A stretch of DNA of 64,000 nucleotides from Candidatus Omnitrophota bacterium (GTDB lineage Bacteria > Omnitrophota > Gorgyraeia > Duberdicusellales > 4484-171). The stretch spans positions 32,001 to 96,000 of the forward strand of contig JAIPGM010000003.1 in the NCBI GenBank assembly GCA_021735655.1, written 5' to 3'. Below, piece by piece: positions 3-53,926 of this stretch (position 1 is its first letter; every line of letters begins with the position of its first letter). Position numbers and translations under genes: made by a program. The notes under the pieces were generated by a model, which did not search any database, was not told the DNA's origin, and worked only from the letters and a program-made list of their open reading frames with translations.

Positions 3-266
3 GGAAAGAACACAATATTAAATACATTATCTTCTATTGACCATGATTGTCAGATTGCAGATTTTGTCCATATTGCTCCCGGTACCAATTTAAGCGGCGG
101 GGTAACTATTGGCAAATTTACTCATATTGGAGTTGGTACAGTTGTTAACCAGGGAATTAATATAGGTTGTAATTGTTTAATCGGTTCAGGCAGCGTAGTG
201 GTTAAAGATATCATTGATAATTTAAAAGCCTTTGGGAATCCTTGTAAAGCTATGGAGAAGAGATGA
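3..266 (+). CDS. Hexapeptide-repeat acyltransferase, 3' fragment (NeuD/PglD-like sugar N-acetyltransferase); 5' end lies outside the window
   Basis: Frame 3 translates to ...HIAPGTNLSGGVTIGKFTHIGVGTVVNQGINIGCNCLIGSGSVVVKD..., the left-handed beta-helix hexapeptide pattern [LIV]-G-x4 found at the C-terminus of NeuD/PglD. It ends at the TGA at 264-266, overlapping the next start as ATGA. Confidence 0.55.
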   Translation, partial: GKNTILNTLSSIDHDCQIADFVHIAPGTNLSGGVTIGKFTHIGVGTVVNQGINIGCNCLIGSGSVVVKDIIDNLKAFGNPCKAMEKR

Positions 267-1159
267 TAAGAATTATACCGCGTCTTGATATTAAAGGTCC
301 TAATCTAGTTAAAGGAGTTCACCTTGAGGGCCTTAGGGTTTTAGGCAAGGCTGAAGATTTTGCTTCAAAATATTATACTGATGGAGCCGACGAGCTTATT
401 TATATTGATGTTGTTGCCAGTCTCTATGGTAGAGAAAATCTTTTAGAGATTGTAAGGAGAACAGCACAAAATATATTTATCCCTTTGACTGCCGGCGGTG
501 GGATAAGGACAATTGACGATATAAAAGAATTATTACGAGCCGGCGCAGATAAGGTAGCAATAAATACTGCTGCCATACGAAATCCAGCCTTTATTAGTGA
601 AGCTGCGAAAGTTTTTGGTTCGCAATGTATTGTTATTTCAATCGAGGCTAAATTTAGAAGTGAAGGTAAGTATGAGGCTTTAACTGATAATGGCAGGGAA
701 AAAACTGATCGTGATGTGTTTGATTGGGTACAGGAGGCGGTTGGCCTTGGTGCCGGAGAACTGCTTATTACTAGTATTGATAAGGAAGGTACTGGTAGAG
801 GATATGATTTGAAGCTAATTAAGAGAATTTCAGAGTCAGTGCCAGTCCCGGTTATTGCCTGTGGCGGTGCTGGAAAGACTAAGCATTTTCTTGAAGTCAT
901 TGAAGACGGTTGCGCCGACGCTATAAGTGCTGCTTCTATTTTTCATTATCATTGTCTAGAAAAGTTGCGCTCCGTTGAAAATTTTAAAGAAGAAGGTAAT
1001 GTTGAGTTCATTAGCCAGAATAGAGAATCATTAGATTTCATGAAAAAGCGGCTTGAACCAGTGGATATTTTAGCTGTTAAAAGATATTTATCTGATTTTG
1101 GTATTGCCTGTAGAGCCATAGAGGCGTTTAGAGAAGTTACAAAAGCAGAAAAGATATGA
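263..1159 (+). CDS. HisF-like imidazole-glycerol-phosphate-synthase cyclase subunit homologue (WbuZ-type, sugar amidotransfer)
   Basis: (beta/alpha)8 HisF motifs: RIIPRLDIKG, DELIYIDV, TAGGGIR and VIACGGAGK. It sits directly beside a HisH-like glutaminase and a PP-loop amidotransferase, as in wbuXYZ/pseA loci. The 298 aa is longer than canonical HisF, indicating a C-terminal extension. Confidence 0.8.
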   Translation: MIRIIPRLDIKGPNLVKGVHLEGLRVLGKAEDFASKYYTDGADELIYIDVVASLYGRENLLEIVRRTAQNIFIPLTAGGGIRTIDDIKELLRAGADKVAINTAAIRNPAFISEAAKVFGSQCIVISIEAKFRSEGKYEALTDNGREKTDRDVFDWVQEAVGLGAGELLITSIDKEGTGRGYDLKLIKRISESVPVPVIACGGAGKTKHFLEVIEDGCADAISAASIFHYHCLEKLRSVENFKEEGNVEFISQNRESLDFMKKRLEPVDILAVKRYLSDFGIACRAIEAFREVTKAEKI

Positions 1160-1848
1160 AAGGATCAAAGCCGATTACTGTGATAGTTGATTATGGAATG
1201 GGCAATCTTTTCAGTCTAGAGAGAGTGATAAGACATCTTGGCGGGACTGCAGTTATATCTTCCGACCCGGAAACTATAGCTTCTGCTGAGCGGGTTATTT
1301 TACCTGGGGTAGGTGCTTTTGGTGATGGTATGGATAAGATAAAAAATCGGGAGTTGGTTGCGCCGATACAAAGAGCTATTGATTCGGGTAAGCCGTTTCT
1401 AGGGATATGTTTAGGCATGCAGCTTCTTATGACCGAGAGTGAAGAGTTTGGTGTTCATGGAGGATTAGATGTTATTTCTGGGTCTGTGCGTAGGTTTTTT
1501 GATTCCAAGGGTGATAAGGCGTCCTATAAGATACCACACGTTGGATGGAACCGCTTGCTTGCTCCTAAGATAGTTGAATTCGGCCAGCCAGTTTCTTGCG
1601 AGGGAAGTAATAAATTTTGGGAGGATACTATTTTAAATACAACTCAAGAGGGTGAATTTGTGTATTTTGTGCATTCGTATACCGTTACCCCTCAGAACCC
1701 TGAGCATATTCTTGCTGAGACTGAATATGGTCAGTCTCGTTTTTGCTCGGCAATACGTTCCAACAATGTGTTTGGCTGCCAGTTTCATCCTGAGGTAAGT
1801 GCGAATGTAGGTTTACGAATCTTAAAAGAGTTTTTATATACTGTTTAA
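1156..1848 (+). CDS. HisH-like class-I glutamine amidotransferase (WbuY-type)
   Basis: VIVDYGMGNLFSL, GVGAFG, a GICLGMQLL catalytic-Cys nucleophile elbow, and a C-terminal FHPE...S motif typical of HisH. The 4-bp overlap with the upstream HisF-like gene suggests translational coupling. Confidence 0.8.
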   Translation: MKGSKPITVIVDYGMGNLFSLERVIRHLGGTAVISSDPETIASAERVILPGVGAFGDGMDKIKNRELVAPIQRAIDSGKPFLGICLGMQLLMTESEEFGVHGGLDVISGSVRRFFDSKGDKASYKIPHVGWNRLLAPKIVEFGQPVSCEGSNKFWEDTILNTTQEGEFVYFVHSYTVTPQNPEHILAETEYGQSRFCSAIRSNNVFGCQFHPEVSANVGLRILKEFLYTV

Positions 1849-1887
1849 GTTTACAAATAGGATTTTTGGCTAGAGAAAGGAGTAATA

Positions 1888-3087
1888 ATGTTATTTCCAG
1901 GAAAAACCTTAGATCGACAGTTGGCAAAAAGCCCCAAAGAGGTTAAATATTGTACAAAGTGCGTGGTTTCAAATCAAAGACCAAGAATTACCTTTGATGA
2001 AAATGGAGTCTGCAGTGCATGTAATTATGCTTATCTTAAGCATAATAAGATTGATTGGGCTAAAAGAGAGAAAATGCTGTTGGAGTTGCTTGATAAGCAT
2101 AGGTCCAGTGATGGAAGTTATGATTGCGTTGTTCCTGGTTCCGGCGGAAAGGATAGTAGTTATGTTGCGCATCAATTGAAATATAAATATCAGATGCACC
2201 CACTTACTGTAACTTGGGCACCTTTTATTTACACAGACGTTGGCTGGCAGAATTATATCGCCTTTAAAGATCATGGGTTTAATAATCTTTTGTGTTTTCC
2301 TGACGGAATAATCCATCGTAAATTAGCTCGTCTTAGTTTTGAATTGTTAGGTGATGCCTGGGAGCCTTTTGCTTATGGGCAAAAGGCATATGCTTTCCAT
2401 ATTGCTACTAAGTTCAAGATTCCTTTAATTTTTTATGGCGAAAGCGGTGAAGTAGAATATGGGGGCTCAACTACTTATATAGATAGTCCGGTAGAGCCAA
2501 CCGATAACTATAGCGAAGTTTATTATAAGGGCTCCGGGGTTGATGAAATTATAAAACATGGTCAAGATGTGGGACTGTTTAGCGAAGAAGAAGTAAAGAG
2601 TAATCCTTTTCAATTTTATCGGATGCCTCCACTTGAGGATGTAGAGAAACTTAAACCACAGATGCACTGGTTTTCTTTTTATAAAAAATGGGTGCCACAG
2701 GAGAATTATTACTACTCTGTTGATCATACTGGTTTTCAAGCAAATTTCGATGGGCGCTCAGAAGGTACCTATTCCAAATATGCTAGCTTAGATGATAAAA
2801 CTGACGGATTCCATTTTTATTTGGCATATATCAAGTTTGGTATTGCCCGAGCTACATCAGATGCTGCGCATGAAATCAGAGACGGGCATCTAACCAGAGA
2901 AGAAGGGGTAGCCTTGGTTCATCGTTACGATGGTGAACTTCCTAAAAAATATTTTAAGGAATTTCTTGAGTATTTAGATATTAAAGAAGAGCAATTCTGG
3001 GAAGTTATTGATTTTTATCGTTCACTTTCTCCCCATCTTTGGGAAAAAATAAATGGTGAATGGAAACTCAAACATAAAGTATTTTGA
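1888..3087 (+). CDS. N-acetyl sugar amidotransferase (WbuX/PseA family, PP-loop ATP pyrophosphatase)
   Basis: PP-loop SGGKDSS at residues 85-91 and a C-x-x-C pair near the N-terminus (CTKCVV...CSACNY). It follows the HisH/HisF pair. An AAGGAG RBS lies 9 nt upstream of the ATG at 1888. Confidence 0.75.
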   Translation: MLFPGKTLDRQLAKSPKEVKYCTKCVVSNQRPRITFDENGVCSACNYAYLKHNKIDWAKREKMLLELLDKHRSSDGSYDCVVPGSGGKDSSYVAHQLKYKYQMHPLTVTWAPFIYTDVGWQNYIAFKDHGFNNLLCFPDGIIHRKLARLSFELLGDAWEPFAYGQKAYAFHIATKFKIPLIFYGESGEVEYGGSTTYIDSPVEPTDNYSEVYYKGSGVDEIIKHGQDVGLFSEEEVKSNPFQFYRMPPLEDVEKLKPQMHWFSFYKKWVPQENYYYSVDHTGFQANFDGRSEGTYSKYASLDDKTDGFHFYLAYIKFGIARATSDAAHEIRDGHLTREEGVALVHRYDGELPKKYFKEFLEYLDIKEEQFWEVIDFYRSLSPHLWEKINGEWKLKHKVF

Positions 3088-3115: not shown

Positions 3116-4195
3116 ATGAAAGACATAAAAAAAATATTTGTAACTAGTAACAATACGATTGAAGAAACTTTAGCTGTTATCCAGCGTGGAGGTGTGGGCA
3201 TAGCTTTGGTTGTAGATAACCAGCAGCATCTAGTTGGCACAATAACTGATGGAGATATCCGTAGGGCTATTTTGAACAAAATCCCTTTAAGTAAAAAAAT
3301 CACTGTCTTGTTTGATTATCGTCCTGAAGACTACCCAGTCCCGGTTTCAATGCCTCATGACATAACTCGTGAAGAGCTCATTGAGATTATGAGTGAGAAA
3401 AAACTAAATCAAATACCGCTCCTCGATAGCGATTCCCACATCGTAGAACTAGCTTTACTTTCGGAGCTTGTCGAAGAAGAGCTTAACTTGCCGGTTAGAG
3501 CAGTAGTTATGGCTGGCGGAAAGGGGCAGCGGTTGCACCCGCTTACTAAAGATACACCAAAACCGATGCTTCTTTTAGAAGATCGTCCCTTGGTGGAACG
3601 TACCATAGCCCAGCTGCGTAGATCAGGAATTACAAAAGTAAATATTTCTACTCATTACAAATCTGATGTGATTATAAAACATTTTGGTAAAGGAGATGCT
3701 TTTGGTGTAGATATTGATTATATTAATGAAGATCAACCATTGGGTACTGCTGGAGCTTTGGGATTAATGAAACCCATTGATGAACCGACTTTAGTTATCA
3801 ATGGAGATGTGTTAACTAAATTAGATTTTCGTAGGTTGCTTGATTTCCATCGCCATCATGATGCGATAATGACTGTAGGGGTGCGCAAGTGCGAGATAGA
3901 GATACCTTACGGAGTTATTGATATTGATGATGTAGTCGTAAAAAAGATTATTGAAAAACCAGTAAAGAATTTTATTGTTAATGCCGGAATTTATTTGTTA
4001 GGACCAATAGCCTATAAGTATATTCCCAAAAATATAAATTTTGATATGACCGATTTAGTTGATGAGTTACTAAAAGCTAAGCATAAAGTAGTCTGCTTTC
4101 CGATACAGGAGTATTGGCTTGACATAGGACATCCTGAAAATTATGAACAAGCAAAGGAGGACATTAAGAATGGCGCACTTCAGCTGGAAAAATAA
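3116..4195 (+). CDS. CBS-domain pair fused to a sugar-1-phosphate nucleotidyltransferase (PtmE-like, possible GlcNAc-1-P guanylyltransferase)
   Basis: The N-terminal ~120 aa look like a CBS pair (VGIALVVDNQQHLVGTITDGDIRRAIL). The C-terminal domain carries the NTP-transferase signature AVVMAGGKGQRLHPLTKDTPKPML. This architecture matches the CBS-nucleotidyltransferase of legionaminic acid pathways. Confidence 0.65.
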   Translation: MKDIKKIFVTSNNTIEETLAVIQRGGVGIALVVDNQQHLVGTITDGDIRRAILNKIPLSKKITVLFDYRPEDYPVPVSMPHDITREELIEIMSEKKLNQIPLLDSDSHIVELALLSELVEEELNLPVRAVVMAGGKGQRLHPLTKDTPKPMLLLEDRPLVERTIAQLRRSGITKVNISTHYKSDVIIKHFGKGDAFGVDIDYINEDQPLGTAGALGLMKPIDEPTLVINGDVLTKLDFRRLLDFHRHHDAIMTVGVRKCEIEIPYGVIDIDDVVVKKIIEKPVKNFIVNAGIYLLGPIAYKYIPKNINFDMTDLVDELLKAKHKVVCFPIQEYWLDIGHPENYEQAKEDIKNGALQLEK

Positions 4196-5171
4196 AAAAG
4201 TTTTTGTTACCGGTGCCGGAGGATTTATCGGAAGTCACTTGTGTGAATGTTTAGTTAAGCTAGGCGCAAAGGTAAAGGCAATGGCAGAGTATAACTCCTT
4301 GGGAAGATGGGGTTGGCTTGATTATTCTAGTTTACATGATGAAATGGATATTTTTTTAGGCGATATCAGAGATAGAGACAGCACCAGAGAAGCTGTTAAG
4401 GGCCAGGATATGGTTTTTCACCTAGCGGCTCTTATAGGTATACCTTATTCTTATATAGCTCCAGCTTCATATATTGAAACTAATATAGCTGGCACTCTTA
4501 ATTTATTGCAAGCAGCAAGAGAGTATGATATCGAATGTTTTTTACAGACCTCAACTAGTGAGACTTATGGAACCGCTCAATATACCCCTATTGATGAAAA
4601 GCATCAACTTCAGGGTCAATCTCCTTATTCAGCTTCGAAAATAGGTGCAGACAAAATGGCAGAGAGTTTTTATCGTTCTTTCAAAGTTCCGGTAGTAACG
4701 GTTAGGCCTTTTAATACCTATGGCCCCAGACAGTCTGCCCGGGCAGTTATACCTACAATTATTACACAAATTTTAGAAAAAGATAAAGTCTGCATTGGTT
4801 CGCTTGCTCCCAGGCGTGATTTGACCTATGTCCAGGATATTGCCTTAGCCTTCATTGGTGCAGCCCAGGCAGGCAAATCTGCCTTTGGTGAAGTGTTTAA
4901 TGTTGGCTCGGGAAAGTCAATATCTATAGGTGAATTAGCCCAAGTGATTGCTAAGCTTATTGGAAAAGAGGTACCCGTAGAAAGCAGTTGCCAGCGTATA
5001 AGGCCAGAGGCTAGTGAAGTAATGTTGTTGATGGCAGATAGTAGTAAAGCTAAAAAAATATTTGGGTGGGAACCAAGCCTTTCTCTAGAAGAAGGACTCA
5101 AGAAAACAATTGAATGGTTTAAGGATAAGGATAATTTAAAGTTATATAAAAATGACCGTTATGTAGTATAA
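4170..5171 (+). CDS. NAD-dependent NDP-sugar 4,6-dehydratase/epimerase (extended SDR, LegB/PseB-like)
   Basis: Rossmann motif VFVTGAGGFIGSHL and catalytic YxxxK (PYSASKIGADK). The start is reassigned to the ATG at 4170, which is preceded by AAGGAGG at 4154-4160; the ORF-track start at 4143 would overlap the upstream gene by 52 nt. Confidence 0.7.
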   Translation: MAHFSWKNKKVFVTGAGGFIGSHLCECLVKLGAKVKAMAEYNSLGRWGWLDYSSLHDEMDIFLGDIRDRDSTREAVKGQDMVFHLAALIGIPYSYIAPASYIETNIAGTLNLLQAAREYDIECFLQTSTSETYGTAQYTPIDEKHQLQGQSPYSASKIGADKMAESFYRSFKVPVVTVRPFNTYGPRQSARAVIPTIITQILEKDKVCIGSLAPRRDLTYVQDIALAFIGAAQAGKSAFGEVFNVGSGKSISIGELAQVIAKLIGKEVPVESSCQRIRPEASEVMLLMADSSKAKKIFGWEPSLSLEEGLKKTIEWFKDKDNLKLYKNDRYVV

Positions 5172-5181
5172 GGTTAAAACA

Positions 5182-6381
5182 ATGAGCTCTATGAATAAAA
5201 AAATTACTGTCAGTACATCAATTAATGACTTAATTCCTTTAAGCGTTCCTGAAATTAAGGGTAATGAATGGAAATATATAAAGGAGTGCCTAGATACCAA
5301 TTGGGTTTCATCAGTAGGAAGTTATGTTGATCAATTTGAAAATGCTGTAGCTGATTATGTTGGGCGCGGTTATGGTGTAGCTTGTGTTAATGGTACATCA
5401 GCCTTGCATGTAGCTCTTTTACTTTCGGGTATAAAATCTCAAGAGGAAGTTTTACTTCCGGCGCTTACCTTTGTCGCACCGGCCAATGCTATTTGCTATA
5501 CTGGGGCAAAGCCAGTTTTTATTGACGTTGATCTTGATAATTGGCAAATAGATACAGGAAAGATTTTAGGGTTTTTGAAAAAAGAGTGTAAATATCAAAA
5601 AGGAAAGTTAATTAATAAGAATACCGGTAGAGTAATTAAAGCAATAATGCCTGTGCATATACTAGGACACCCGGCTGATATGGACGCTATCATGAGCATT
5701 GCCCGAAAATATAAACTAAAAGTTATTGAAGATGCTGCTGAAGGATTAGGGTCAGCCTATAAAAATCGACCTCTGGGAATTTCAGGAGATATTGCTTGTT
5801 TTAGCTTTAATGGAAACAAGATATTAACTACTGGCGGCGGAGGTATGGTTGTTGTTGATAAAAAATCCTGGTCTGATCGGGCCCGTTATCTTATAACTCA
5901 AGCCCGGAATAATGTCTTAGAGAATATTCACAATGAAATTGGCTACAATTACCGCCTGACCAATATTCAAGCTGCTATGGGTTTTGCCCAGATGGAGCAA
6001 CTCGATAAATTTGTTGAGAAAAAGAGAGATATTGCTCGTCGATATAATGAGCAATTAAAAGATGTACCGGGAATCGGCTTACCAAAAGAAGCTTCCTGGG
6101 CTAAATCCAATTACTGGCTATATACAATCTTTGTTGACAGAGCTAAATATAGAATTGATAGCAGAGCTTTATTAGAAAAACTAAAAAGATCTAATATCCA
6201 GACTCGGCCTCTGTGGCACCCTTTACATTCCCTAAAGCCGTTTAAAAAGTGTTTTTCTTACAAGATAAAAGTAGCCAATAAATTGTATAAAAATTGTTTG
6301 AGCTTGCCTTCATCAGTAGGGCTTACCAAGAGCGATCAAAAGAAAGTCATCGACATTATAAAACGCAGTAGGAGCTTGTAA
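5182..6381 (+). CDS. DegT/DnrJ/EryC1/StrS family PLP-dependent sugar aminotransferase (LegC/PseC-like)
   Basis: Fold-type I aminotransferase motifs: a GTSALHVAL, DAAEGLGS, and SFNGNKILTTGGGG in which the PLP lysine is present. Confidence 0.75.
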   Translation: MSSMNKKITVSTSINDLIPLSVPEIKGNEWKYIKECLDTNWVSSVGSYVDQFENAVADYVGRGYGVACVNGTSALHVALLLSGIKSQEEVLLPALTFVAPANAICYTGAKPVFIDVDLDNWQIDTGKILGFLKKECKYQKGKLINKNTGRVIKAIMPVHILGHPADMDAIMSIARKYKLKVIEDAAEGLGSAYKNRPLGISGDIACFSFNGNKILTTGGGGMVVVDKKSWSDRARYLITQARNNVLENIHNEIGYNYRLTNIQAAMGFAQMEQLDKFVEKKRDIARRYNEQLKDVPGIGLPKEASWAKSNYWLYTIFVDRAKYRIDSRALLEKLKRSNIQTRPLWHPLHSLKPFKKCFSYKIKVANKLYKNCLSLPSSVGLTKSDQKKVIDIIKRSRSL

Positions 6382-6393
6382 AAGGAGTAGTCT

Positions 6394-7434
6394 ATGAGCC
6401 CAGACATGAATATAGTGCGTTCCCAGAAACTTGCCGATAAAATTGTTATTGTAGACGGACAACCCGGTTGCGGTAAAACTATGCTTTCACCGATTGTTGC
6501 TGCTTTGGATAGGGTGGAGTTACTTATGTTTGTTTATGAGATAGAATATTTTTGCGCTTTAAGATATTTACAAAAAATGGATAAAGATACAGCCGAAACT
6601 TTAATTAAATTGATTACTGATTTAAGAATTTATAATGCAATGATGTCGCGGGAAGTAAATTTTCGCTTCAGCGATGCTTCAAGCGCCTTTAAAGATATAA
6701 ATCCCCTGAAATACATTAGGAGGCTTTTTCAAAAGGGTGATGACTTGGTCCCTGAAAGAATAAAGAACCAGAGACCAATTTTGCATTTGGCTACCCATGA
6801 TCTCTTAAGCAGGGCCGATTCAGTTTTTGCTGCTTTAGGTGAAAATCTTGTTTTTATAGAGGTGGTGAGGCATCCTTTATACATGCTTAAACAAGAAGCA
6901 GTTAATATGCAGCGGCTATTCTTATCCGATCCTAAGCATTTTGAAGTATATTTTTCTTATAAGGATAAAGAGTTGCCTTATTTTGTTTATGGGTGGGAGG
7001 ATTTATTTTTTTCTTCTAATCATATTGAAAAAGCTATCTATTTAATCAATAGCATGACTGAGAGAACAGAGGCTTTTAAGAATAATGTAGAGGAAAAGTT
7101 GAACGGAGCTAAGTTGATAACAATTCCTTTTGAAGGTTTTGTGATAAGTCCTGAACCTTATTTGAAAGAAATAGAATTAGCTTTAGACACAAAAGTAACT
7201 AAGGCTACGCGTAAAATGATGAAACGTCAGAATGTGCCACGTAAGATGTATGCTCAAGGTGTTAAACTCGATGTTTACGAAAAGTATGGATGGGAGGCAC
7301 CTAAATCAACAGATGAGTATAGTGAATTAAACCTGCGTCGGAAATTTGCCCAAGATAATGCTTCTGAGGATGCAATGGTTGTGCTTGATAGGCTTTCTAA
7401 AAAGTATGAAGATGAATATTTAAATAAAAAGTAA
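6394..7434 (+). CDS. P-loop (Walker A) protein of unknown function inside the nonulosonic-acid module; candidate kinase or sulfotransferase-like enzyme
   Basis: A Walker-A-like VIVDGQPGCGKTML lies near the N-terminus. No other family signature was recognised by eye. The gene is tightly packed between the aminotransferase and the cytidylyltransferase. Confidence 0.3.
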   Translation: MSPDMNIVRSQKLADKIVIVDGQPGCGKTMLSPIVAALDRVELLMFVYEIEYFCALRYLQKMDKDTAETLIKLITDLRIYNAMMSREVNFRFSDASSAFKDINPLKYIRRLFQKGDDLVPERIKNQRPILHLATHDLLSRADSVFAALGENLVFIEVVRHPLYMLKQEAVNMQRLFLSDPKHFEVYFSYKDKELPYFVYGWEDLFFSSNHIEKAIYLINSMTERTEAFKNNVEEKLNGAKLITIPFEGFVISPEPYLKEIELALDTKVTKATRKMMKRQNVPRKMYAQGVKLDVYEKYGWEAPKSTDEYSELNLRRKFAQDNASEDAMVVLDRLSKKYEDEYLNKK

Positions 7435-7448
7435 AAGAGAGGTTTATT

Positions 7449-8111
7449 GTGAAAACAATTGTATTAGTTCCGGCAAAACTTAAAAGTGACAGAGTTCCTT
7501 TTAAAAATATAAAACAGTTAGGTGGAGTTCCTTTAGTCAATTATACCATGCGTACTTTAAATAAACTTTCAGACATTAATGATATTGTTGTTTTTGCCTC
7601 AGAGCCTTCCATATGCGAGTATATACAGCGCGGATTAAAATATACATTCCTGGAGCGTCCGACAGAGCTGGATACTCAAGATACAAAAATACAGGATATT
7701 ATAAGAGAGTTTTTAAACAGAAGTGATGCCGATATAGTTGTCCTAGTGCATATTACTTCACCATTTTTGCAGGCTGAAACAATCTCTGACTGCATAAAAA
7801 AGGTTCATTCTGGTCAGTATCATACAGCTTTCACTGCATATGAAGTTAGAAAATTCTGTTGGTTTCGCGATAAACCGCTTAACTATTCTTTAGATAAACC
7901 TACACCACGCACTCAGGATATAAACCCGGTAGTTGTAGAGCAGGCTAGTTTATATGTATTTAGGAGAGAGGTTTTTGAAAAAACAGGCCAGCGGATTTGC
8001 TCTAAGCCTTATATTAAATATATTGATCATTTCGAGGGCCATGATATTGATACTCCGGAAGACTTTAGGGTTGCAGAATTGATTGTTAATACAGGTCTCT
8101 TTGCAATATAG
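7449..8111 (+). CDS. Acylneuraminate cytidylyltransferase family (CMP-nonulosonic acid synthetase, NeuA/LegF/PseF-like)
   Basis: N-terminal VLVPAKLKSDRVPFKNIKQLGGVPLVNYT matches the CMP-NeuAc/CMP-Kdo synthetase glycine-rich loop. GTG start with an AGAGAGG RBS upstream. Confidence 0.75.
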   Translation: MKTIVLVPAKLKSDRVPFKNIKQLGGVPLVNYTMRTLNKLSDINDIVVFASEPSICEYIQRGLKYTFLERPTELDTQDTKIQDIIREFLNRSDADIVVLVHITSPFLQAETISDCIKKVHSGQYHTAFTAYEVRKFCWFRDKPLNYSLDKPTPRTQDINPVVVEQASLYVFRREVFEKTGQRICSKPYIKYIDHFEGHDIDTPEDFRVAELIVNTGLFAI

Positions 8112-8122
8112 GATGTAATTAA

Positions 8123-9262
8123 ATGGATCAAGAAACAATTTTTAAGAAAATTTACAATGTCGAACTTAACCAGGATAAGTATGACATTGTAATTGGTAAA
8201 GGTTTACTTGAAACTGCTGTTTTAGAAGCCTTAGAGAAACGGACTAAAAATAAGAATGTTGTTTTTGTCTTTGATGTATTTTTTCAAGATAGAAGCAATG
8301 CTTTTATAGATTTTTTATCTAAGGCTGGCTACAAAGTTTACCCATATTATATGGTAGCTGGCAAGCATAATAAAACTATAAGTGAGGCAATAAAAATATA
8401 CGAAATTCTTGAGGCTAACAGTCTATCTAGAGACTCAACTATAGTAGCTTTAGGAGGTGGTGTTCTTGGCGATTTAGCTGGATTCGTAGCAAGCACATAT
8501 CATCGCGGGATGAAGCTTATAAATATACCGACCACCCTTACGGCCATGATTGACAGTAGCATTGGAGGCAAGGTCGCTATAAATTTCAGAAAGACTATTA
8601 ATGCCATAGGAAATTACTATCATCCTATAGCAAATGTTATTGATTTTAAATTTATTAGTACATTACCTCAACGTGACTTTAAGGCTGGACTGGCTGAGAT
8701 AATAAAATGTGCAATTATTAACGATAAAGAACTGTTTGATTATCTTAAATCTAATAGCCAGAAGATTCTTGACCGGGATGAAGATTCTTTATTCAATATC
8801 ATGTGTCGAGCCATAGAGATTAAACTTGTTCATGTATCAGGGGATGTGAAGGAGAAGAATGAGAGACTCAAGCTCAATTACGGCCACACCTTAGGACATT
8901 CCATAGAGATTTCGACCGATGTCTTAGAGGAGATTTATCGCCATGGAGAGGGGGTGTCTCTTGGCATGGTTGCTGCAGCATTTTTGGCAAGAAAATATTT
9001 TGGACAAGGTCAAGATATCTTAGATGCTCATGAGGAGATTCTTAACCAGTATGGCCTTCCAACCCGAGTTCATGCAAAAGATATTGGTTTTGAATATAAG
9101 AGTTTGATTGAAGAATGTATGCGAAATGTTCATAAAGATAAAAAGAAAAAGGATAACAAACTCAGATTTATTCTTCCTGATGAAATTGGTAAATGCCAGG
9201 TCTACGATCGTGTGGCAGATGATGCTATCAGGGAGGCATTTGTTTATCTTATAAAGGAGTGA
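8123..9262 (+). CDS. 3-dehydroquinate synthase-like sugar-phosphate cyclase superfamily protein
   Basis: Signature of the DHQS/2-deoxy-scyllo-inosose synthase family: ALGGGVLGDLAGFVASTYHRGMKLINIPTTLTAMIDSSIGGKVAINF. Metal-binding histidines are in the C-terminal half (NYGHTLGHSIE). Confidence 0.7.
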   Translation: MDQETIFKKIYNVELNQDKYDIVIGKGLLETAVLEALEKRTKNKNVVFVFDVFFQDRSNAFIDFLSKAGYKVYPYYMVAGKHNKTISEAIKIYEILEANSLSRDSTIVALGGGVLGDLAGFVASTYHRGMKLINIPTTLTAMIDSSIGGKVAINFRKTINAIGNYYHPIANVIDFKFISTLPQRDFKAGLAEIIKCAIINDKELFDYLKSNSQKILDRDEDSLFNIMCRAIEIKLVHVSGDVKEKNERLKLNYGHTLGHSIEISTDVLEEIYRHGEGVSLGMVAAAFLARKYFGQGQDILDAHEEILNQYGLPTRVHAKDIGFEYKSLIEECMRNVHKDKKKKDNKLRFILPDEIGKCQVYDRVADDAIREAFVYLIKE

Positions 9263-9263
9263 T

Positions 9264-10025
9264 ATGAAAGAAAAAAAATCTTTAGAAAGAAAAACTTGTA
9301 TTATAACTGGATCTGGTAAGGGAATTGGAAGAGCAGCCGCAGAGCTTTTTTATAATCATGGGGCTAACTTGGCATTGATTACCAGAGATAAACAAGACTT
9401 GATATCCTTAAGGGACGATGTCGGATTTGACGATGAACGAATTTTTCTAAGCCAGGGAGACGTCTCTGATGAGGAAACGGTTAAAAGATTCATACAAGAA
9501 ACTATAGGAAAATTTAAAAAAATAGATGTTCTTATTAATAATGCCGGTATACGTTTCAGGAAAGATTTTTTAGACACCACGACAGAGGAGTGGGATCAAG
9601 TAATTAATAATAACCTCAATAGCACATATCTTTTTTCTAGGGAAGCAGGGCGAAATATGGTTTCAAGAAAAGAGGGCAAAATTGTTAATATTGTATCGAT
9701 TGTAGGTACGCTTGGATTGCCTCAGCTTTCCGCATACGGAGCATCAAAAGGAGGAGTAATCACGCTTACGAAATGCTTAGCTTTAGAGTGGGCCAAATGC
9801 AATATTAATGTTAACGCTATTGCCCCAGGATTTTGCGAAACATCGTATGTAGAAAAGTTTAGAAAAAAAGAAGAACTATATAAATTTACTATAGAAAGGA
9901 CGCCGCAGAAAAAATGGGGAACTTCTCTTGACATAGCAGAAGCCTGTCTTTTCTTATCCACAGAAGCATCTAAGTATATTACTGGTGAAGTGTTAAATGT
10001 TGATGGTGGTTGGAGTGCTTGGTAA
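9264..10025 (+). CDS. Short-chain dehydrogenase/reductase (SDR, FabG/PtmA-like)
   Basis: TGSGKGIGRAAA (TGxxxGxG), NNAG, and YGASKGG (YxxxK). Confidence 0.8.
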   Translation: MKEKKSLERKTCIITGSGKGIGRAAAELFYNHGANLALITRDKQDLISLRDDVGFDDERIFLSQGDVSDEETVKRFIQETIGKFKKIDVLINNAGIRFRKDFLDTTTEEWDQVINNNLNSTYLFSREAGRNMVSRKEGKIVNIVSIVGTLGLPQLSAYGASKGGVITLTKCLALEWAKCNINVNAIAPGFCETSYVEKFRKKEELYKFTIERTPQKKWGTSLDIAEACLFLSTEASKYITGEVLNVDGGWSAW

Positions 10026-10109
10026 AAATAATAAATTAAGAATAAAAAATGTTTTAAGATAGTAGAAAATTATTGTATTTTGTAATTAATATTGAGACAA
10101 ATATTTAAA

Positions 10110-12260
10110 ATGGGAATGAGGGGTGAGGAGAAAAATAATCAGAGAAGTTATTATATACAAAATCTTACAGTCGCTCCTTGGCTAGTATCGATAGCTCCTT
10201 ATCTAATGCGTAATTTTTTCAAGGGGAATAGAAATATCAAAGTTTATTTTATCGATGCTTCAATATGTGGTTTATGGCTGGCGCGCTTCATGTTATTATT
10301 TTTTGGTCTCAAGCTTAATGAGTTGAAATTTCGTTTGGTTGATGTCCATGATGACGATGGTGTTCTTCTGCATCTACGAGTAGATTATTTTGATTCTACG
10401 GTTGTGCAAAAATATATATTGGAAAGGCCTATTTTCTCGGAGCTGTTTTTAAACAAGCCTGCTAAAAGTAGAATAGCTATGTTTTTGGCAAAACGCATTT
10501 TTGCCTCTGCTAGTAAGCCTGAATCGACATTAGATAGAGCAGTTTATCTCATTCAAGTAGTTAAGCAAAAGTCAAAAGAGTATGTAGCTGAATGCTTGCA
10601 GCCTGTTTTGTTTTTGGACAGAAGGTTGTGGATGAATGAAATTAAAAGATATGCGTGCAAGCATAATATATCTGTTATTGGCGCTAAAAGTTTTAATATC
10701 AATTTTAAATATTTTTTATTAGGGTTTTTGGGACCAAAAATAAATATTTTAAAAAATATCTATTTTTGGTTTTTAAGAATAAAAAGAAGTTTTTGCAGTA
10801 AGTATGGCTGGATTGTTAAAAATAAGAAATCAATTTCAATCGTTATCAGACATAAAAAAAATAATGCAGATAATAGCATTATTGGTAGCCAGGTAAAGCT
10901 TGGGGTTAACTATTATGGTCATCTTAATCTTAATAATCCAGAACTGTATTCGGATTTATTTTTTTTACAGCAGTCAGATTTATCAGGAAAAGATATTTTA
11001 ATCGTATCTAATATGCTGTTTGATCCCATTGATGATAAAAAATTAATGGAGATTGCCAAGCATGATATGAATGTAGTTGCGCTTTCAGCAAAGGCAACTA
11101 ATAGTTTTTCCGTGCCGTTTTTTTACCATTGGCCGAGTCGTAGCTCAAATTCATCGTTTAAGTTTATCTCAAAAAATGCTTATAATGGCGATGAGCGCAG
11201 ATGGTTTCTGCGGCAGATGAGAGACTACTATAAGGATTGTAATTATTGGCAGGATTTTTTTGCAAAGCATAATGTTAAGGCATTTATGACTTGGTATAAG
11301 TATGATGCTTCTCACTGTGTTGTTGCCGATGCCATGCGGAATGTTGGAGGAATAATGGCTGTTTATCAACGCGCCTTTGAGGAATTTCCTTCTTGCAAGA
11401 CAACGATTGCGTCTGATGTTGTGTTTGGTTTTTCGCCTGCAAATGCTGAGATTGAACGTCTTTCCGGTTCACAGATTTCCTACCATATTTCTACAGGTTA
11501 TTATGCTGACTACAGGCTACCTTTGCTAAAGGCGCATGCACAGAGGGTGCGCACATCTCTACAGCAAAGAGGAGCTAAACAAATTATTGCTTATTTTGAT
11601 GAAAATTCCGGAGCTGATTCTCGTTGGCATAATGGGCATGAATCTACAATAGCTAATTATGATTTTTTACTTAAAAAAGTTTTATCTCAAAAATGGTTTG
11701 GTCTTATTTTAAAACCTAAGGTTCCCTCAACGTTAAGATTGAGGCTGGGGCTAACGGCAGACTTACTTAAGGAAGCAGAAGCAACTGGAAGGTGTTTTGT
11801 CTTTGAGGCAGGGGCCTTGCATAGTGCCTACCCTCCCGCTATAGCTGCTCTAGCTTCTGATATCGCCATCCACGGTCATCTGTATGCTGCAACAGCTGGG
11901 CTTGAATCAGCGCTTGCAGGAGTCCCTACTCTTTTACTTGATCGTGAAGGCTGGTCGATTAGTAAATTATACCATTTGGGTTTAGGACGGGTAGTTTTTA
12001 CTGATTGGCAAAGTCTTTGGAAAACATATATTGAATATTGGCAGGATTCCAGGAAGGTGCCAGGCTTCGGCGATTGGTCTTCGATGATAAATGATTTAGA
12101 TCCTTTCAGAGATGGCCGAGCAGCAGAAAGAATAGGTACATACTTGAAGTGGTTGCTTGACGGCTTTAAGCAAGGGCTTAAACGAGAAGATATTATGGCT
12201 TCTGCCGCAGAGCGTTATGCTAGGATTTGGGGAAGTGATAAAATAGCTACACTGGGGTAG
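10110..12260 (+). CDS. Large hypothetical protein (about 715 aa); the C-terminal region resembles GT-B glycosyl/phosphoglycosyl transferases of capsule or teichoic-acid type
   Basis: Long + strand ORF. The start is uncertain: the track gives a TTG at 10092, and the first in-frame ATGs are at 10110 and 10116. The C-terminal segment ...EAGALHSAYPPAIAALASDIAIHGHLYAATAGLESALAGVPTLLLDREGW... looks like a GT-B C-terminal nucleotide-binding fold. An AT-rich 85-bp intergenic precedes it. Confidence 0.3.
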   Translation: MGMRGEEKNNQRSYYIQNLTVAPWLVSIAPYLMRNFFKGNRNIKVYFIDASICGLWLARFMLLFFGLKLNELKFRLVDVHDDDGVLLHLRVDYFDSTVVQKYILERPIFSELFLNKPAKSRIAMFLAKRIFASASKPESTLDRAVYLIQVVKQKSKEYVAECLQPVLFLDRRLWMNEIKRYACKHNISVIGAKSFNINFKYFLLGFLGPKINILKNIYFWFLRIKRSFCSKYGWIVKNKKSISIVIRHKKNNADNSIIGSQVKLGVNYYGHLNLNNPELYSDLFFLQQSDLSGKDILIVSNMLFDPIDDKKLMEIAKHDMNVVALSAKATNSFSVPFFYHWPSRSSNSSFKFISKNAYNGDERRWFLRQMRDYYKDCNYWQDFFAKHNVKAFMTWYKYDASHCVVADAMRNVGGIMAVYQRAFEEFPSCKTTIASDVVFGFSPANAEIERLSGSQISYHISTGYYADYRLPLLKAHAQRVRTSLQQRGAKQIIAYFDENSGADSRWHNGHESTIANYDFLLKKVLSQKWFGLILKPKVPSTLRLRLGLTADLLKEAEATGRCFVFEAGALHSAYPPAIAALASDIAIHGHLYAATAGLESALAGVPTLLLDREGWSISKLYHLGLGRVVFTDWQSLWKTYIEYWQDSRKVPGFGDWSSMINDLDPFRDGRAAERIGTYLKWLLDGFKQGLKREDIMASAAERYARIWGSDKIATLG

Positions 12261-12298: not shown

Positions 12299-13051
12299 GT
12301 GAATATACAAATTTTTATAAAAAAAGTTAAAAATAAACTGAAAACATTTTGGTTGCAAATAGCTACCTTAAGGAGTGCTAATTTGCGTTGGTTGTTTCGG
12401 AATCGTTATTTGCGTATGGATGCTAATGTAACAACAAATCCGGTTGAGAGAAGGATTTTTCATATTGATCGATATAAATTCGCCGTGAATAAACTTAGAA
12501 AAGTTTATAGCGATACAAGGAATTTACTTATTGTTGATGTTGCTTGTGGTACAGGGTATGGCTCGGATATTTTAAAAAAAGTTAATCCGAAAAAAATAAT
12601 AGGTATTGATATTTGTCCTGAGACAGTTAAATATGCTCAAAAAAAATATGGAACGCATCATTGTATTTTTAATACTAGCGATGCTGTCGAAATGAATATT
12701 ATTAAATCAGGAACTGTCGATGTGGTCGTTTCATTTGAAACCATTGAGCATTTAGAGCAGCCGATAATTTTTTTGAAGAACGTAAAAAGGGTATTGAAGA
12801 ATAAAGGATGCTTAATTATTTCCACACCTAATAGTTGGGGAGAAACAAGAGACCATAGGTTTGATTATGATTATCAATTGCTGAAGACTCACCTTGAACA
12901 ATTCTTCACGATAGACTCTATGTATGTTCAAAATAGCGGAAGTATGAATTTATGGATGAATAGAGGTTTTCAGCGGCGGTTAATTCCAGTGAGTCCCGAT
13001 AACGTTAATGAGGCCGAATGTTTTATAGCCATAGCCAGAAATTATTTTTAA
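12299..13051 (+). CDS. Class I SAM-dependent methyltransferase
   Basis: Motif I LIVDVACGTGYGSDIL, and VVVSFETIEHL as a motif II/post-I region. GTG start at 12299; an alternative ATG lies at 12416. Confidence 0.7.
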   Translation: MNIQIFIKKVKNKLKTFWLQIATLRSANLRWLFRNRYLRMDANVTTNPVERRIFHIDRYKFAVNKLRKVYSDTRNLLIVDVACGTGYGSDILKKVNPKKIIGIDICPETVKYAQKKYGTHHCIFNTSDAVEMNIIKSGTVDVVVSFETIEHLEQPIIFLKNVKRVLKNKGCLIISTPNSWGETRDHRFDYDYQLLKTHLEQFFTIDSMYVQNSGSMNLWMNRGFQRRLIPVSPDNVNEAECFIAIARNYF

Positions 13052-26490: not shown

Positions 26491-26501
26491 AGCTTTAAAT
26501 A

Positions 26502-28435: not shown

Positions 28436-28448
28436 TAAGGAGTAGACA

Positions 28449-39668: not shown

Positions 39669-39696
39669 TCTGAAGTTAATTTAATAATTTAAGCTA

Positions 39697-51709: not shown

Positions 51710-52807
51710 ATGAAGCTATTTTTTAAATCTTGGCAGAAAAAAAGTAAAAAGAAGAGAATTCTTTTTGCTGGAGTCTGCCATGCTAATTTCATACAGTTTA
51801 GGCCAATTTATGAGATCCTTAAGCAGGATCCAAGAGTTGAAATTTTATTCTCTGGTATGTATCAAAGTAAAGACCGGCCGCGTGAACTCTATAAACCTTT
51901 TAATATAGATAAGAAATTCATCATAAGAGAAAAGTTCGCAAAAACTTTGAGTTTTGACATCTATATTAGCCCAGATTATCACATGATTGACAATAACTAT
52001 TCTTCAACTATTCAGTTTTTTCACACCACTTCTTTTAGAAATTTCTCAGTTAGTGAAGAGGCAAAAAGCTTTGATCAGATTTTTTTAATTGGGCCGTACA
52101 TGAAGCGTAAGTTTATCGAGGCAGGTATTTTTGAAGTTGATGATCCGAGATTAAAAGAAGTAGGCATGCCGCAAACAGATGCTCTTTTAGATAATATCGA
52201 CACTGGTTTGTCTGAGAGACTTGGCTTAGATAAGAGTCTTCCGACTATACTTTACGCTCCAGTCTGGGCGCCGATAGAGAGCTTTCTTGAAGATGTTCAA
52301 ACAACACTTAAAACTTTAACCTCAATTAAGGCTAATCTTCTTCTTAAGTTGCACGATAAATTTTATTATCAACAGGTAAATAAAATTAGATGGCGGGAGT
52401 TTTTGAATTTGGTGCTAAGCGAGAATAAGAATGTACATTTAATAGATGATTTTGATATTATACCTTACATGAAAATTAGTGATTTGCTTGTCAGCGACGT
52501 TAGTGCTGTTGTACATCAGTTTTCTATATTAGATAAGCCAATAGTATGCATGAAGGTAGATGTTGATGAGTTTAAAAAGTTCTGGCCAGGGCTTGATCAT
52601 AAAGCCTATTTAGATCGCGCGGTAATAGAAGCTTCTCAAGGAGAGGCTTTAAAAGAGGCAGTTTTGGGAGAACTTGCTAATCCTGGCAATTTGAGTCAAA
52701 AACGGATAGCCATGAGTAAAGAGTATTTTTATAATATTGGGTTTTCTGCAAAATGCGCAGTTTCGCAAATTTATCAGTCTTTTAATCTAAAGAATACAGA
52801 TGAATAA
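51710..52807 (+). CDS. CDP-glycerol glycerophosphotransferase family protein (TagB/TagF-like)
   Basis: The TILYAPVWAP segment resembles the TagF-family ...LYAPT[WF]R core. It is followed by a GT-B-like C-terminal half. Confidence 0.5.
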   Translation: MKLFFKSWQKKSKKKRILFAGVCHANFIQFRPIYEILKQDPRVEILFSGMYQSKDRPRELYKPFNIDKKFIIREKFAKTLSFDIYISPDYHMIDNNYSSTIQFFHTTSFRNFSVSEEAKSFDQIFLIGPYMKRKFIEAGIFEVDDPRLKEVGMPQTDALLDNIDTGLSERLGLDKSLPTILYAPVWAPIESFLEDVQTTLKTLTSIKANLLLKLHDKFYYQQVNKIRWREFLNLVLSENKNVHLIDDFDIIPYMKISDLLVSDVSAVVHQFSILDKPIVCMKVDVDEFKKFWPGLDHKAYLDRAVIEASQGEALKEAVLGELANPGNLSQKRIAMSKEYFYNIGFSAKCAVSQIYQSFNLKNTDE

Positions 52808-53903
52808 AAAGCCGCTTTCCTCAAAAAATAGTTTCTTAGTTAAACTGAAAGTCAGCCAAGAAATCCTTATGGATGCCGAGCAAATAGCTATAGGTGGGTA
52901 CGCTCCAGTTGATGGTTTTATGGGAAAGGCTGACTTTGAATCAGTTTTGAATAATATGCGCCTTGTAAAAGGTGATGTTTGGACTTTGCCAATAGTGTTA
53001 GATATAAGTAAAAAAGAAGCAGCATCAATTAAAATCGGGGATGAAATATTGCTTGGTGACGGCCAGGATCAGGAAAATTTTCTTTTTTCTGTGGAAGATA
53101 TTTATGAACATGATAAATCTTTGTATTGCGATAAGGTTTATGGTACTAAAGATGTAGCTCATTCAGGAGTAGCAAAGGTGCTTAAGATGGGAGAGGTCCT
53201 TGTAGGGGGCCGGGTTATATCGGTTTTAAATAATTTTGATTTTGATATGCGTAAATTCACCATGACCCCGAAAGAGACAAAAGCCCAGTTTGAAAAAAAT
53301 AATTGGAAAACGGTTGTTGCTTTTCATACCCGGAATGTGGTGCACAGAGCCCATGAGTATCTTCAGCGCTGTGCTATGGAATATGCCGATGGAATTTTGA
53401 TCCATCCTGCGGTTGGCTTTACAAAACCCGGTGATTTCAAGAAAGAGCTTATAATAAAGGGCTATCAAAGTTTAATTGATAACTATTATCCAAAAAATAA
53501 AGCTCTTCTCTCGGCTTTGGGCATAGGCATGAAATTTGCCGGGCCAAGAGAAGCTGTATTTCATGCCTTGGTGCGGAAAAATTATGGTTGTACACATATA
53601 ATTATTGGTAGAGATCATGCTGGCGTAGGCGGATACTATGAGAAGTATGCCGGACATAAGATATTTTCTAGTTTGCCATCTTTGGGCATAACCCCTTTAT
53701 TATTTAAGGGACCGTTTTATTGCAATAAATGTGAAGCTATGGCTACCGAAAGCACCTGCTCGCATGATGAGTCTTATAGGTCAGAAGTCAGCGGAACATT
53801 AGCTCGTAAATTCATAAAGGAAAAGAAAAAGCTCCCTAAGTGGCTGATGCGTCCTGAAATCGCAAACTTGCTTGAAGACCTCGGTGAAAGCGTTTTTTCT
53901 TAA
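52800..53903 (+). CDS. sat: Sulfate adenylyltransferase (ATP sulfurylase)
   Basis: FHTRNVVHRAHEYL (QTRN...HRAH motif) and IIIGRDHAGVGGYY (GRDHAG motif) are diagnostic of ATP sulfurylase. No APS-kinase domain is fused or adjacent. Confidence 0.8.
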   Translation: MNKKPLSSKNSFLVKLKVSQEILMDAEQIAIGGYAPVDGFMGKADFESVLNNMRLVKGDVWTLPIVLDISKKEAASIKIGDEILLGDGQDQENFLFSVEDIYEHDKSLYCDKVYGTKDVAHSGVAKVLKMGEVLVGGRVISVLNNFDFDMRKFTMTPKETKAQFEKNNWKTVVAFHTRNVVHRAHEYLQRCAMEYADGILIHPAVGFTKPGDFKKELIIKGYQSLIDNYYPKNKALLSALGIGMKFAGPREAVFHALVRKNYGCTHIIIGRDHAGVGGYYEKYAGHKIFSSLPSLGITPLLFKGPFYCNKCEAMATESTCSHDESYRSEVSGTLARKFIKEKKKLPKWLMRPEIANLLEDLGESVFS

Positions 53904-53926
53904 AACTTAAATAAGGAGTAAACAAG

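Follow-up and report, generated by a model that had tools for sequence, protein, structure and literature searches.

A sulfotransferase-fold protein family with a kinase-type Walker A loop in bacterial legionaminic-acid gene clusters

What does a P-loop protein do inside a gene cluster for a nonulosonic acid (NulO)? The question is raised by a 346-aa product encoded at positions 6394..7434 (+) of the window, by which we mean the whole 64,000-nucleotide stretch analyzed here (positions 32,001 to 96,000 of contig JAIPGM010000003.1, from a Candidatus Omnitrophota bacterium). In the literature searched, no enzyme that sulfates a bacterial nonulosonic acid, or phosphorylates one by means of a P-loop, was described. 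An earlier note on this DNA had called the product, hereafter the target, an orphan P-loop protein embedded in a nonulosonic-acid module and had proposed a sugar kinase or a sulfotransferase. Our analysis places the target with high confidence in the sulfotransferase fold and superfamily. Its best-supported mechanism is that of a sulfotransferase dependent on 3'-phosphoadenosine 5'-phosphosulfate (PAPS) and acting on a legionaminic-acid (Leg) derivative, a function to which we give about an even chance.

The open reading frame (ORF) is as the earlier note had given it, with an ATG start, 346 codons and an N-terminal Walker-A-like GQPGCGKT at residues 22-29 (nt 6457-6480). The number of homologues and the ~40 columns invariant among close relatives establish it as a real gene and not a chance ORF. 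A Shine-Dalgarno sequence, AAGGAG, was read at 6382..6387 (+), 6 nt before the ATG; the preceding LegC-family gene stops at 6381, leaving a gap of 12 nt, and the next gene starts with a GTG at 7449, 14 nt past the target and behind its own purine-rich site. As the GC content is close to that of the window (35.4% vs 36.2%) and no 19-residue stretch is transmembrane-like (maximal hydropathy 1.47), the product is native, soluble and cytoplasmic. Searches of Pfam, NCBIfam and PDB (E<=10; PDB by phmmer and with a profile) returned matches to only 17-31 P-loop residues, all below threshold. By database matches, "orphan P-loop protein" is thus an accurate label, but orphan does not mean unique: 473 homologues were found at E<=1e-3 in a 90%-identity database, the first being an identical protein from a Candidatus Omnitrophica metagenome-assembled genome (MAG).

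The AlphaFold2 model of the target, made with 33 sequences, has a predicted local distance difference test score (pLDDT) of 91.5 and a predicted template modelling score (pTM) of 0.91. It consists of a single alpha/beta domain with a five-stranded parallel sheet that is structurally nearest to solved sulfotransferases, and the top 38 Foldseek matches to it were all sulfotransferases. The fold and superfamily part of the earlier proposal was therefore upheld, whereas sulfotransferase function is an evenly balanced matter and kinase function an unlikely one. When 37 members of the family were scanned singly, 17 gave weak matches to Pfam Sulfotransfer_3 (PF13469) and seven matched Sulfotransfer_1. 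The members P0204, P0221 and P0230 exceeded the gathering score of Sulfotransfer_1 (PF00685) over a stretch that runs from the 3'-phosphate-binding (3'-PB) region to near the C-terminus, and all three score E 1e-62 to 1e-70 against the family profile. A TPST profile was also built on a human TPST2 sequence that had been checked against PDB 3AP3 (292/293 identical). Aligned by hhalign, the family and this profile gave E 1.5e-4 and a probability of 51% over 188 columns, a probability that is modest because the search for TPST homologues to deepen the profile found only vertebrate TPSTs, at least 75% identical.

Conservation is given here over 274 family members, 134 of them less than 40% identical to the target. 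The hhalign pairing sets R159 opposite TPST2 R183, Q167 opposite S191 and P-F-E-G-F-V-I-S-P opposite V-Y-Y-E-Q-L-V-L-H-P. The last of these is the beta5 motif P-F246-E247-G-F-V-I-S-P253 (7126..7152, +; F246 F263/Y10, E247 267/274, P253 259/274), which matches the sulfotransferase pattern '[FY]-E-x-L-x-x-x-P...FLG' and aligns with TPST2 'VYYEQLVLHP...DFLG' and SULT1A1 'LFYEDMKENP'; '[FY]-E-x-[LF]..P' is the adenine-side motif of sulfotransferases. In single-sequence hhalign, TPST2 and SULT1A1 align with the target in the region of this motif only. In sulfotransferases the 3'-PB motif has an Arg that ends beta4 and, eight residues on, a Ser. Its counterpart here is R159-H-P-L-Y-M-L-K-Q167 (6868..6894, +), with the Ser replaced by Gln or His (R159 273/274, P161 274/274, position 167 Q165/H73/S7). 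Directly after strand beta3 (residues 129-133 of the model) comes T134-H135 (6793..6798, +), with H135 a candidate catalytic residue (His in 266/274). Its spacing to R159 is 24 residues, as against 25 in TPST2 (K158-R183) and 22 in cytosolic SULTs, which makes H135 a candidate for the position of SULT His108 and TPST2 Lys158. An acidic residue ~23 residues past K28, E51 (6544..6546, +; E257/D12 of 274), is a candidate general base and may be likened to TPST2 Glu99, which lies 21 residues past Arg78, although hhalign sets E99 3-5 residues off. In TPST2, Arg78, Glu99 and Lys158 are required for activity (PMC10951654). The residue roles proposed here, and the putative active-site placement of H135 and E51, are read from alignment and motif order.

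Three further elements give the family its own character. The P-loop G22-Q-P-G-C-G-K28-T29 (6457..6480, +) is a kinase-type Walker A standing at the position of the sulfotransferase 5'-phosphosulfate-binding (5'-PSB) loop; K28 is conserved in 269/269 ungapped members, position 29 varies (T178/S59/A16/G12) and position 25 is mostly Gly (G 246, R 11). A family-specific motif, S-R-x-x-N-F-R-x-x-D-x-S-S (6646..6684, +), occupies an inter-helix loop that has no regular secondary structure in the model, and it could serve in acceptor binding or as a lid (R86 273, N89 272, R91 R262/K11, D94 272 and S96 S243/T31, out of 274). The near-invariant loop Q279-N-V-P282-R283 (7228..7242, +; P282 273/274, R283 270/274) might provide a second contact to the 3'-phosphate or one to the acceptor. 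The strong conservation of K28, E51, H135, R86, R91 and D94 across the 274 members argues for catalysis. With the canonical Lys/Arg of the 5'-PSB missing, the family is a variant inside the sulfotransferase superfamily and not an ordinary member of it.

The target is the founding member of a previously unnamed family without a Pfam model. A search with the family profile returned 1398 clusters at 50% identity among 1.84 billion representatives, 475 of them below 1e-30. Database searches with the target and the profile found no name or Pfam domain among the homologues, whose sources were all metagenomes, MAGs or single-amplified genomes, and a search for named or cultured representatives among 10 divergent clusters and 34 GTDB loci met only metagenomic, hypothetical entries. 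The 34 loci, which came from a scan of one genome per GTDB species, belong to Omnitrophota, Planctomycetota (including Scalindua), Nitrospirota, Nitrospina, Elusimicrobia, Acidobacteriota, Gemmatimonadota, Cloacimonadota, Legionellales, other Gamma-, Alpha- and Deltaproteobacteria, SAR86, SAR116, SAR324 and Pelagibacteraceae. One more locus, outside the 34, is from Margulisiibacteriota, and the family spans at least a dozen phylum-level groups.

Gene neighborhoods point to the pathway. ORFs were called in all loci and labeled by phmmer with probes from the window and from loci L001, L002, L005 and L006. In the 37 loci, 607 of the 617 genes are co-directional; at least one Leg gene is present in 32/37 and at least one gene of a second, co-conserved module in 34/37. 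This second module consists of a CTP_transf_3 cytidylyltransferase (usually fused to a cupin), a dehydroquinate-synthase-like (DHQS-like) protein, one or two short-chain dehydrogenases/reductases (SDRs), an IolG-like GFO oxidoreductase, a GmhA-like SIS isomerase, often a 2-hydroxyacid dehydrogenase, and a ~670-aa protein; it lies at 7449-10025 of the window, at 11047-17091 of L001 and 13511-18374 of L002, and also in L005 and L006. Within 10 kb of the family gene, the 36 related loci encode CTP_transf_3 (32), DHQS-like (25), PtmE-like (21), Epimerase_2 (21), NeuB (20) and a 666-722-aa protein (20). A CTP_transf_3 gene stands directly downstream of the family gene in 13/37 loci (12 cupin-type, one LegF-type), and a WbuXYZ trio occurs in 12/37 and adjoins the family gene in 7/37. 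Four members that are 26-36% identical to the target (P0265, P0244, P0291 and P0271) are also found in Ptm-type Leg or WbuXYZ clusters with a different second module: P0265 and P0244 neighbor HMGL-like, LdpA-like Fe-S, HAD and HpcH genes and another CTP_transf_3, P0291 a radical-SAM protein, and P0271 a DHQS-like gene and three CTP_transf_3 genes. The fifth divergent member, P0230, sits in a sugar-modification cluster whose Leg character is less clear. The family occurs almost only within bacterial legionaminic-acid gene clusters and is consistently tied to them, and the common denominator of its loci is Leg biosynthesis plus an extra cytidylyltransferase. For this reason a Leg derivative, most likely a cytoplasmic precursor, is the most economical acceptor.

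Some of these loci have features of their own. In the P0265 context and at L045 4798-9775, divergent family members are followed by genes for an HMGL-like protein (~555 aa), an LdpA-like Fe-S protein, a HAD hydrolase, an HpcH/HpaI aldolase and another CTP_transf_3, a set suggestive of a pathway in which an aldolase, a phosphatase and a cytidylyltransferase yield one more 2-keto-3-deoxy acid. Loci L011, L015, L033 and L042 hold a pair of NeuB-type synthases and as many as three CTP_transf_3 genes, a sign that a single cluster may produce two distinct ulosonic acids. The second module that travels with Leg clusters may be a finding in its own right; no NulO pathway using a DHQS-like enzyme was described in the literature searched.

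In the sulfotransferase mechanism, the target would bind a 3'-phosphorylated nucleotide donor, most likely PAPS, and pass the sulfuryl group to a hydroxyl of a Leg derivative that is still a cytoplasmic precursor, free or linked to cytidine monophosphate (CMP). O4 or O8 of Leg would be candidate acceptor sites, as would a hydroxyl of the second ulosonic-type product of the neighboring module. K28 would take over from the canonical 5'-PSB Lys/Arg in stabilizing the phosphosulfate leaving group, the acceptor would lose its proton to H135, to E51 or to both, and the Arg-rich S-R-x-x-N-F-R-x-x-D-x-S-S would bind the anionic sugar. CMP activation of the modified sugar would then fall to one of the two cytidylyltransferases, and its transfer to the conserved TagF-like GT-B protein.

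Several observations weigh against this mechanism. No sulfotransferase Pfam model (PF00685, PF13469 and others) matches the target itself at E<=10, and the hhalign probability was only that modest value, obtained with a shallow, vertebrate-only TPST profile. The 5'-PSB signature [KR]-[ST]-G-[ST]-[ST] is absent: hhalign sets G25 opposite the catalytic R78 of TPST2 and K28 opposite T81, so that the position of the catalytic Lys/Arg is Gly in 246/274 members. The loop is instead a canonical Walker A, GxxxxGK[ST], with an invariant lysine, as in kinases, and in single-sequence hhalign E. coli CysC (E 5e-4) and Adk align with the P-loop of the target only (18-19 columns). The Ser of the 3'-PB motif is replaced by Gln or His. 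The identity of the acceptor is inferred from gene order alone, and no report of sulfated legionaminic acid was found in the literature searched.

The lack of nearby genes for sulfate activation belongs on the same side of the balance. No adenosine 5'-phosphosulfate (APS) kinase was found in the 64-kb window, and neither Sat nor CysC was found within 10 kb of the family gene in any of the 36 loci (probed with the Sat of the window and an E. coli CysC). The ATP sulfurylase that it had reported at 52800..53903 (+) is confirmed as a sulfate adenylyltransferase gene, sat (NF003166, 443.4 bits, cut-off 387), and this gene, 45 kb downstream of the target, is a possible supplier of activated sulfate. 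No canonical sulfotransferase was found in the rest of the window. The missing co-localized sulfate activation neither lends support to the use of PAPS nor rules it out. SAR11 genomes lack sulfate assimilation and most of them retain cysC and cysQ (PMC5069961), which makes PAPS-dependent sulfation feasible in one lineage that carries the family. An argument against PAPS from the presence of the family in SAR11 was dropped on account of these genes. By 8 nt, sat overlaps the end of a CDP-glycerol glycerophosphotransferase-family (Glyphos_transf) gene at 51710-52807, and it is followed by a 180-aa ORF with a weak HpcH/HpaI match (region 51710-54469).

Is the donor then PAPS or ATP? The 3'-PB Arg is near-invariant: R159, aligned with TPST2 R183 and present in 273/274 members, stands at the site where sulfotransferases hold the 3'-phosphate, a group found in PAPS and absent from ATP. 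In P-loop NTPases the hydroxyl at position 29 ligates Mg2+, and this position is Ala or Gly in 28/269 members (11%) and in 27/130 of the distant ones (21%); no conserved Asp/Glu was found after beta3 among family members, leaving a kinase-type Mg2+ ligation unsupported. Both features argue against an Mg-NTP site. Moreover, the overall fold of the target is not closest to kinases, the similarity being about half that to sulfotransferases. The position of R159, together with the evidence against an Mg-NTP site, favors PAPS or another 3'-phosphonucleotide, and the donor would accordingly be PAPS, or at least a 3'-phosphonucleotide, with K28 in place of the PSB Lys/Arg.

The rival that survives best is a small-molecule kinase with ATP as donor and a sulfotransferase-like scaffold, in which K28 binds the beta/gamma phosphates and a NulO or its precursor is phosphorylated, for example to supply the phosphate ester needed by the neighboring DHQS-like 'phospholyase'. 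The perfect Walker A, the Gly at the sulfotransferase catalytic position, and the P-loop alignment with CysC and Adk all speak for it, as does the absence of PAPS-synthesis genes near the family gene. Its setting would suit it as well: 25/36 loci contain a DHQS-like gene, a type whose known relatives have phosphate esters as substrates, and the genes next to the family member are often those for a GmhA-like sugar-phosphate isomerase and a cytidylyltransferase. With a Mg2+-ligating hydroxyl that is not invariant and no conserved acid after beta3, we nevertheless consider a kinase unlikely.

A different idea is that sulfate or phosphate is placed on Leg or a ulosonate intermediate as a leaving group, after which the DHQS-like protein and the oxidoreductases eliminate, deoxygenate or cyclize and the second cytidylyltransferase re-activates the product. 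Several of the nearest structural relatives of the target use sulfation for activation; by their database descriptions, these include the CurM and olefin-synthase ST domains, retinol dehydratase and LGS1 ('sulfation-assisted ring formation'). A second-module gene adjoins the family gene in 24/37 loci and a Leg gene in 17/37, and the DHQS-like orthologue in L001 matches TIGR04425, 'AroB-related sugar phosphate phospholyase (cyclizing)', at 396.9 bits. The conversion of one NulO into another by a second cytidylyltransferase with oxidoreductases also has a precedent, as EpaA (CTP_transf_3 + reductase) and EpaB (SDR) remodel pseudaminic acid (Pse) to 8-epi-Pse in Acinetobacter (PMC12053666). However, the second module is not constant, since divergent members have HMGL-like, Fe-S, HAD, HpcH or radical-SAM genes as neighbors and lack a DHQS-like gene there, and L012, a full-length locus, has Leg genes only. 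Such chemistry is not known for NulOs, and the reading is wholly conjectural; we regard it as quite improbable. It is slightly less probable still that the target is a 'missing-link' group-activating enzyme, of sulfotransferase fold and with a kinase-type Walker A loop, and that the outcome is a new NulO class, further deoxygenated or carbocyclic, re-activated by the second cytidylyltransferase and installed by the TagF-like GT-B protein.

Equally improbable is a sulfotransferase fold that works with a different 3'-phospho-nucleotide donor or moves a different group, or that serves as a non-catalytic nucleotide-binding subunit. The analogy is with 3'-phospho-CDP-amidate, the donor in Campylobacter O-methyl-phosphoramidate synthesis, and the atypical PSB loop, the two or three CTP_transf_3 paralogues per cluster and the lack of PAPS genes found nearby would fit. 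Against it, the candidate catalytic residues are strongly conserved, and no APS-kinase-like 3'-kinase was found in the loci. Finally, a fragment or relative of an AAA+/STAND/ABC NTPase without small-molecule transferase activity, the outcome that the earlier note had named as refuting its proposal, is hardly credible, as the weak Pfam/PDB matches to NPHP3_N, nSTAND3, TIP49, AAA_22, NACHT, NVL and MRP1 cover those P-loop residues only, below gathering thresholds, and Foldseek gives a sulfotransferase.

Within the window, all genes from 263 to ~58 kb lie on the + strand. A WbuZ(HisF-like)/HisH/WbuX N-acetyl-sugar amidotransferase trio for acetamidino formation (263..3087, +; TIGR03572 280.7, TIGR01855 195.8 and TIGR03573 342.3 bits) is followed by a PtmE-like sugar-1-phosphate guanylyltransferase (3116..4195, +; Pfam CBS + NTP_transferase), a LegB-type NAD-dependent 4,6-dehydratase (4143..5171, +; TIGR04180 443 bits, just under the cut-off of 475, and GDP_Man_Dehyd 230 bits) and the LegC-family aminotransferase (5182..6381, +; TIGR04181 488.7 bits, cut-off 420). 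After the target, a soluble sulfotransferase-fold protein, come a second CTP_transf_3 cytidylyltransferase of 220 aa (7449..8111, +; Pfam 67.5 bits, PseF 74.7 bits vs a cut-off of 205.7), the DHQS-like gene (8123..9262, +; TIGR01357 318 bits, Pfam DHQ_synthase) and an SDR (9264..10025, +) that belongs with it to the second module. The 722-aa product of 10092..12260 (+), a conserved protein of 684-722 aa, has no Pfam domain and a GT-B fold, TagF/TarL-like and CMP-Kdo-transferase-like, and is probably the transferase or polymerase for the CMP-activated product.

Extended by 3.6 kb on the upstream side, the same contig (L007) reveals the remaining Leg pathway genes, a CTP_transf_3 (LegF/PtmB position), an SDR (PtmA), NeuB (LegI), Epimerase_2 (LegG) and a PglD-like acetyltransferase (LegH). 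The window therefore starts downstream of the canonical CMP-legionaminate synthetase, which sits in a PtmF-LegF-PtmA arrangement, and the cytidylyltransferase next to the target must be a second paralogue. Its identity is 29% to the 'CTP_transf_3+cupin' gene of L001 and 23% to the LegF type, and on this sequence comparison we take it as the orthologue of the former gene of related loci. The tight packing that the earlier note had described between LegC, the target and a CMP-NulO synthetase consequently stands as to LegC and the short gaps, with the downstream gene corrected to this second paralogue.

After the GT-B gene, the window encodes a class-I methyltransferase (12299-13051), a radical-SAM/SPASM protein (13062-14018) and a 599-aa protein without a Pfam match (14029-15828), a trio that recurs in the Omnitrophota locus L010 with the order of the methyltransferase and the radical-SAM gene swapped. 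Elsewhere the window encodes glycosyltransferases, further sugar-modification modules and sat. At 23991-32498, genes for an NTP_transferase, a 4,6-dehydratase, a metallo-beta-lactamase fold protein, an acylating acetaldehyde dehydrogenase, an HMGL/DmpG-type aldolase, a thiamine-diphosphate-dependent enzyme, an epimerase and a DegT aminotransferase form a run that would suit the synthesis of a deoxy-amino sugar of the branched-chain or C-acylated kind. At 37240-41565, a GT9 heptosyltransferase-like gene lies between those for two 'Phosphodiest' proteins of the alkaline-phosphatase superfamily (452 and 622 aa), and a B12-binding radical-SAM enzyme is encoded within the glycan locus at 44957-46396.

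If the family does sulfate Leg, the surface of many environmental bacteria would bear a mimic of sialic acid with two negative charges, as the family is large (~1400 clusters) and includes abundant marine lineages such as Pelagibacteraceae, SAR86, SAR116, SAR324, Nitrospina and Scalindua. This would bear on phage and grazer recognition, on metal binding and on the sulfated NulO-rich extracellular polymers reported from granular sludge. Should the leaving-group idea prove true, a new branch of sialic-acid-like sugar chemistry would be widespread in uncultured bacteria. A sulfotransferase fold with a kinase Walker-A lysine and no PSB Lys/Arg also bears on the evolution of sulfotransferases from P-loop kinases. 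Our literature searches found no link between legionaminic acid and a sulfotransferase gene or between nonulosonic/legionaminic acid and a DHQS-like gene, and nothing relevant on a sugar phosphate cyclase with a cytidylyltransferase or on a sulfotransferase fold with a Walker A. A 2026 preprint reports that NulO modifications arise at the CMP-sugar level and lists unassigned higher-carbon CMP-ulosonic acids; since its composition filter dropped formulas with both N and S, sulfated NulOs would have been missed there, and untargeted CMP-sugar surveys may overlook such products.

Among known systems, TPST1/TPST2, Stf1, Stf9, CurM-ST and OLS-ST (the Sulfotransfer_3 group) are some of the closest, at an identity to the target of only 12-15%. 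Compared with TPST2, the target has Gly for R78, an invariant Lys for the Thr two residues past the loop glycine, and Gln/His for the 3'-PB Ser; compared with the TPST group, it has an extra helical insertion of ~60 residues (60-126) that carries SRxxNFRxxDxSS, and its presumed acceptor is a sugar acid rather than a peptide, lipid or acyl-ACP. Unlike the SULTs and the heparan sulfate 3-OST/NST enzymes (Sulfotransfer_1), it has no PF00685 match, lacks a PKSGTT-type loop and shows a conserved Q-x-V-P-R loop in place of a recognizable C-terminal RKGxxGxWK 3'-phosphate loop. Adenylate kinase, CysC and nicotinamide riboside kinase differ from the target in another way, as the latter has no Walker B or Mg-binding acid, a variable hydroxyl after the Lys, twice their size, and sulfotransferase-type beta4 and beta5 motifs. 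Vertebrate WSCD1 and WSCD2 are alone among known enzymes in sulfating a nonulosonic acid; these sialate:O-sulfotransferases form Neu5Ac (N-acetylneuraminic acid) 8-O-sulfate, depend on PAPS and have 5'-PSB and 3'-PB motifs (PMC9304399). Compared through the literature only, they would be the model for the action of the target if it is a PAPS-dependent sulfotransferase, and a bacterial counterpart would then be new. WSCD1/2, however, are membrane-bound Golgi proteins of deuterostomes, with WSC domains and a canonical PSB, acting on glycoconjugate-bound sialic acid, and any similarity between them and the target would be at the level of the superfamily only.

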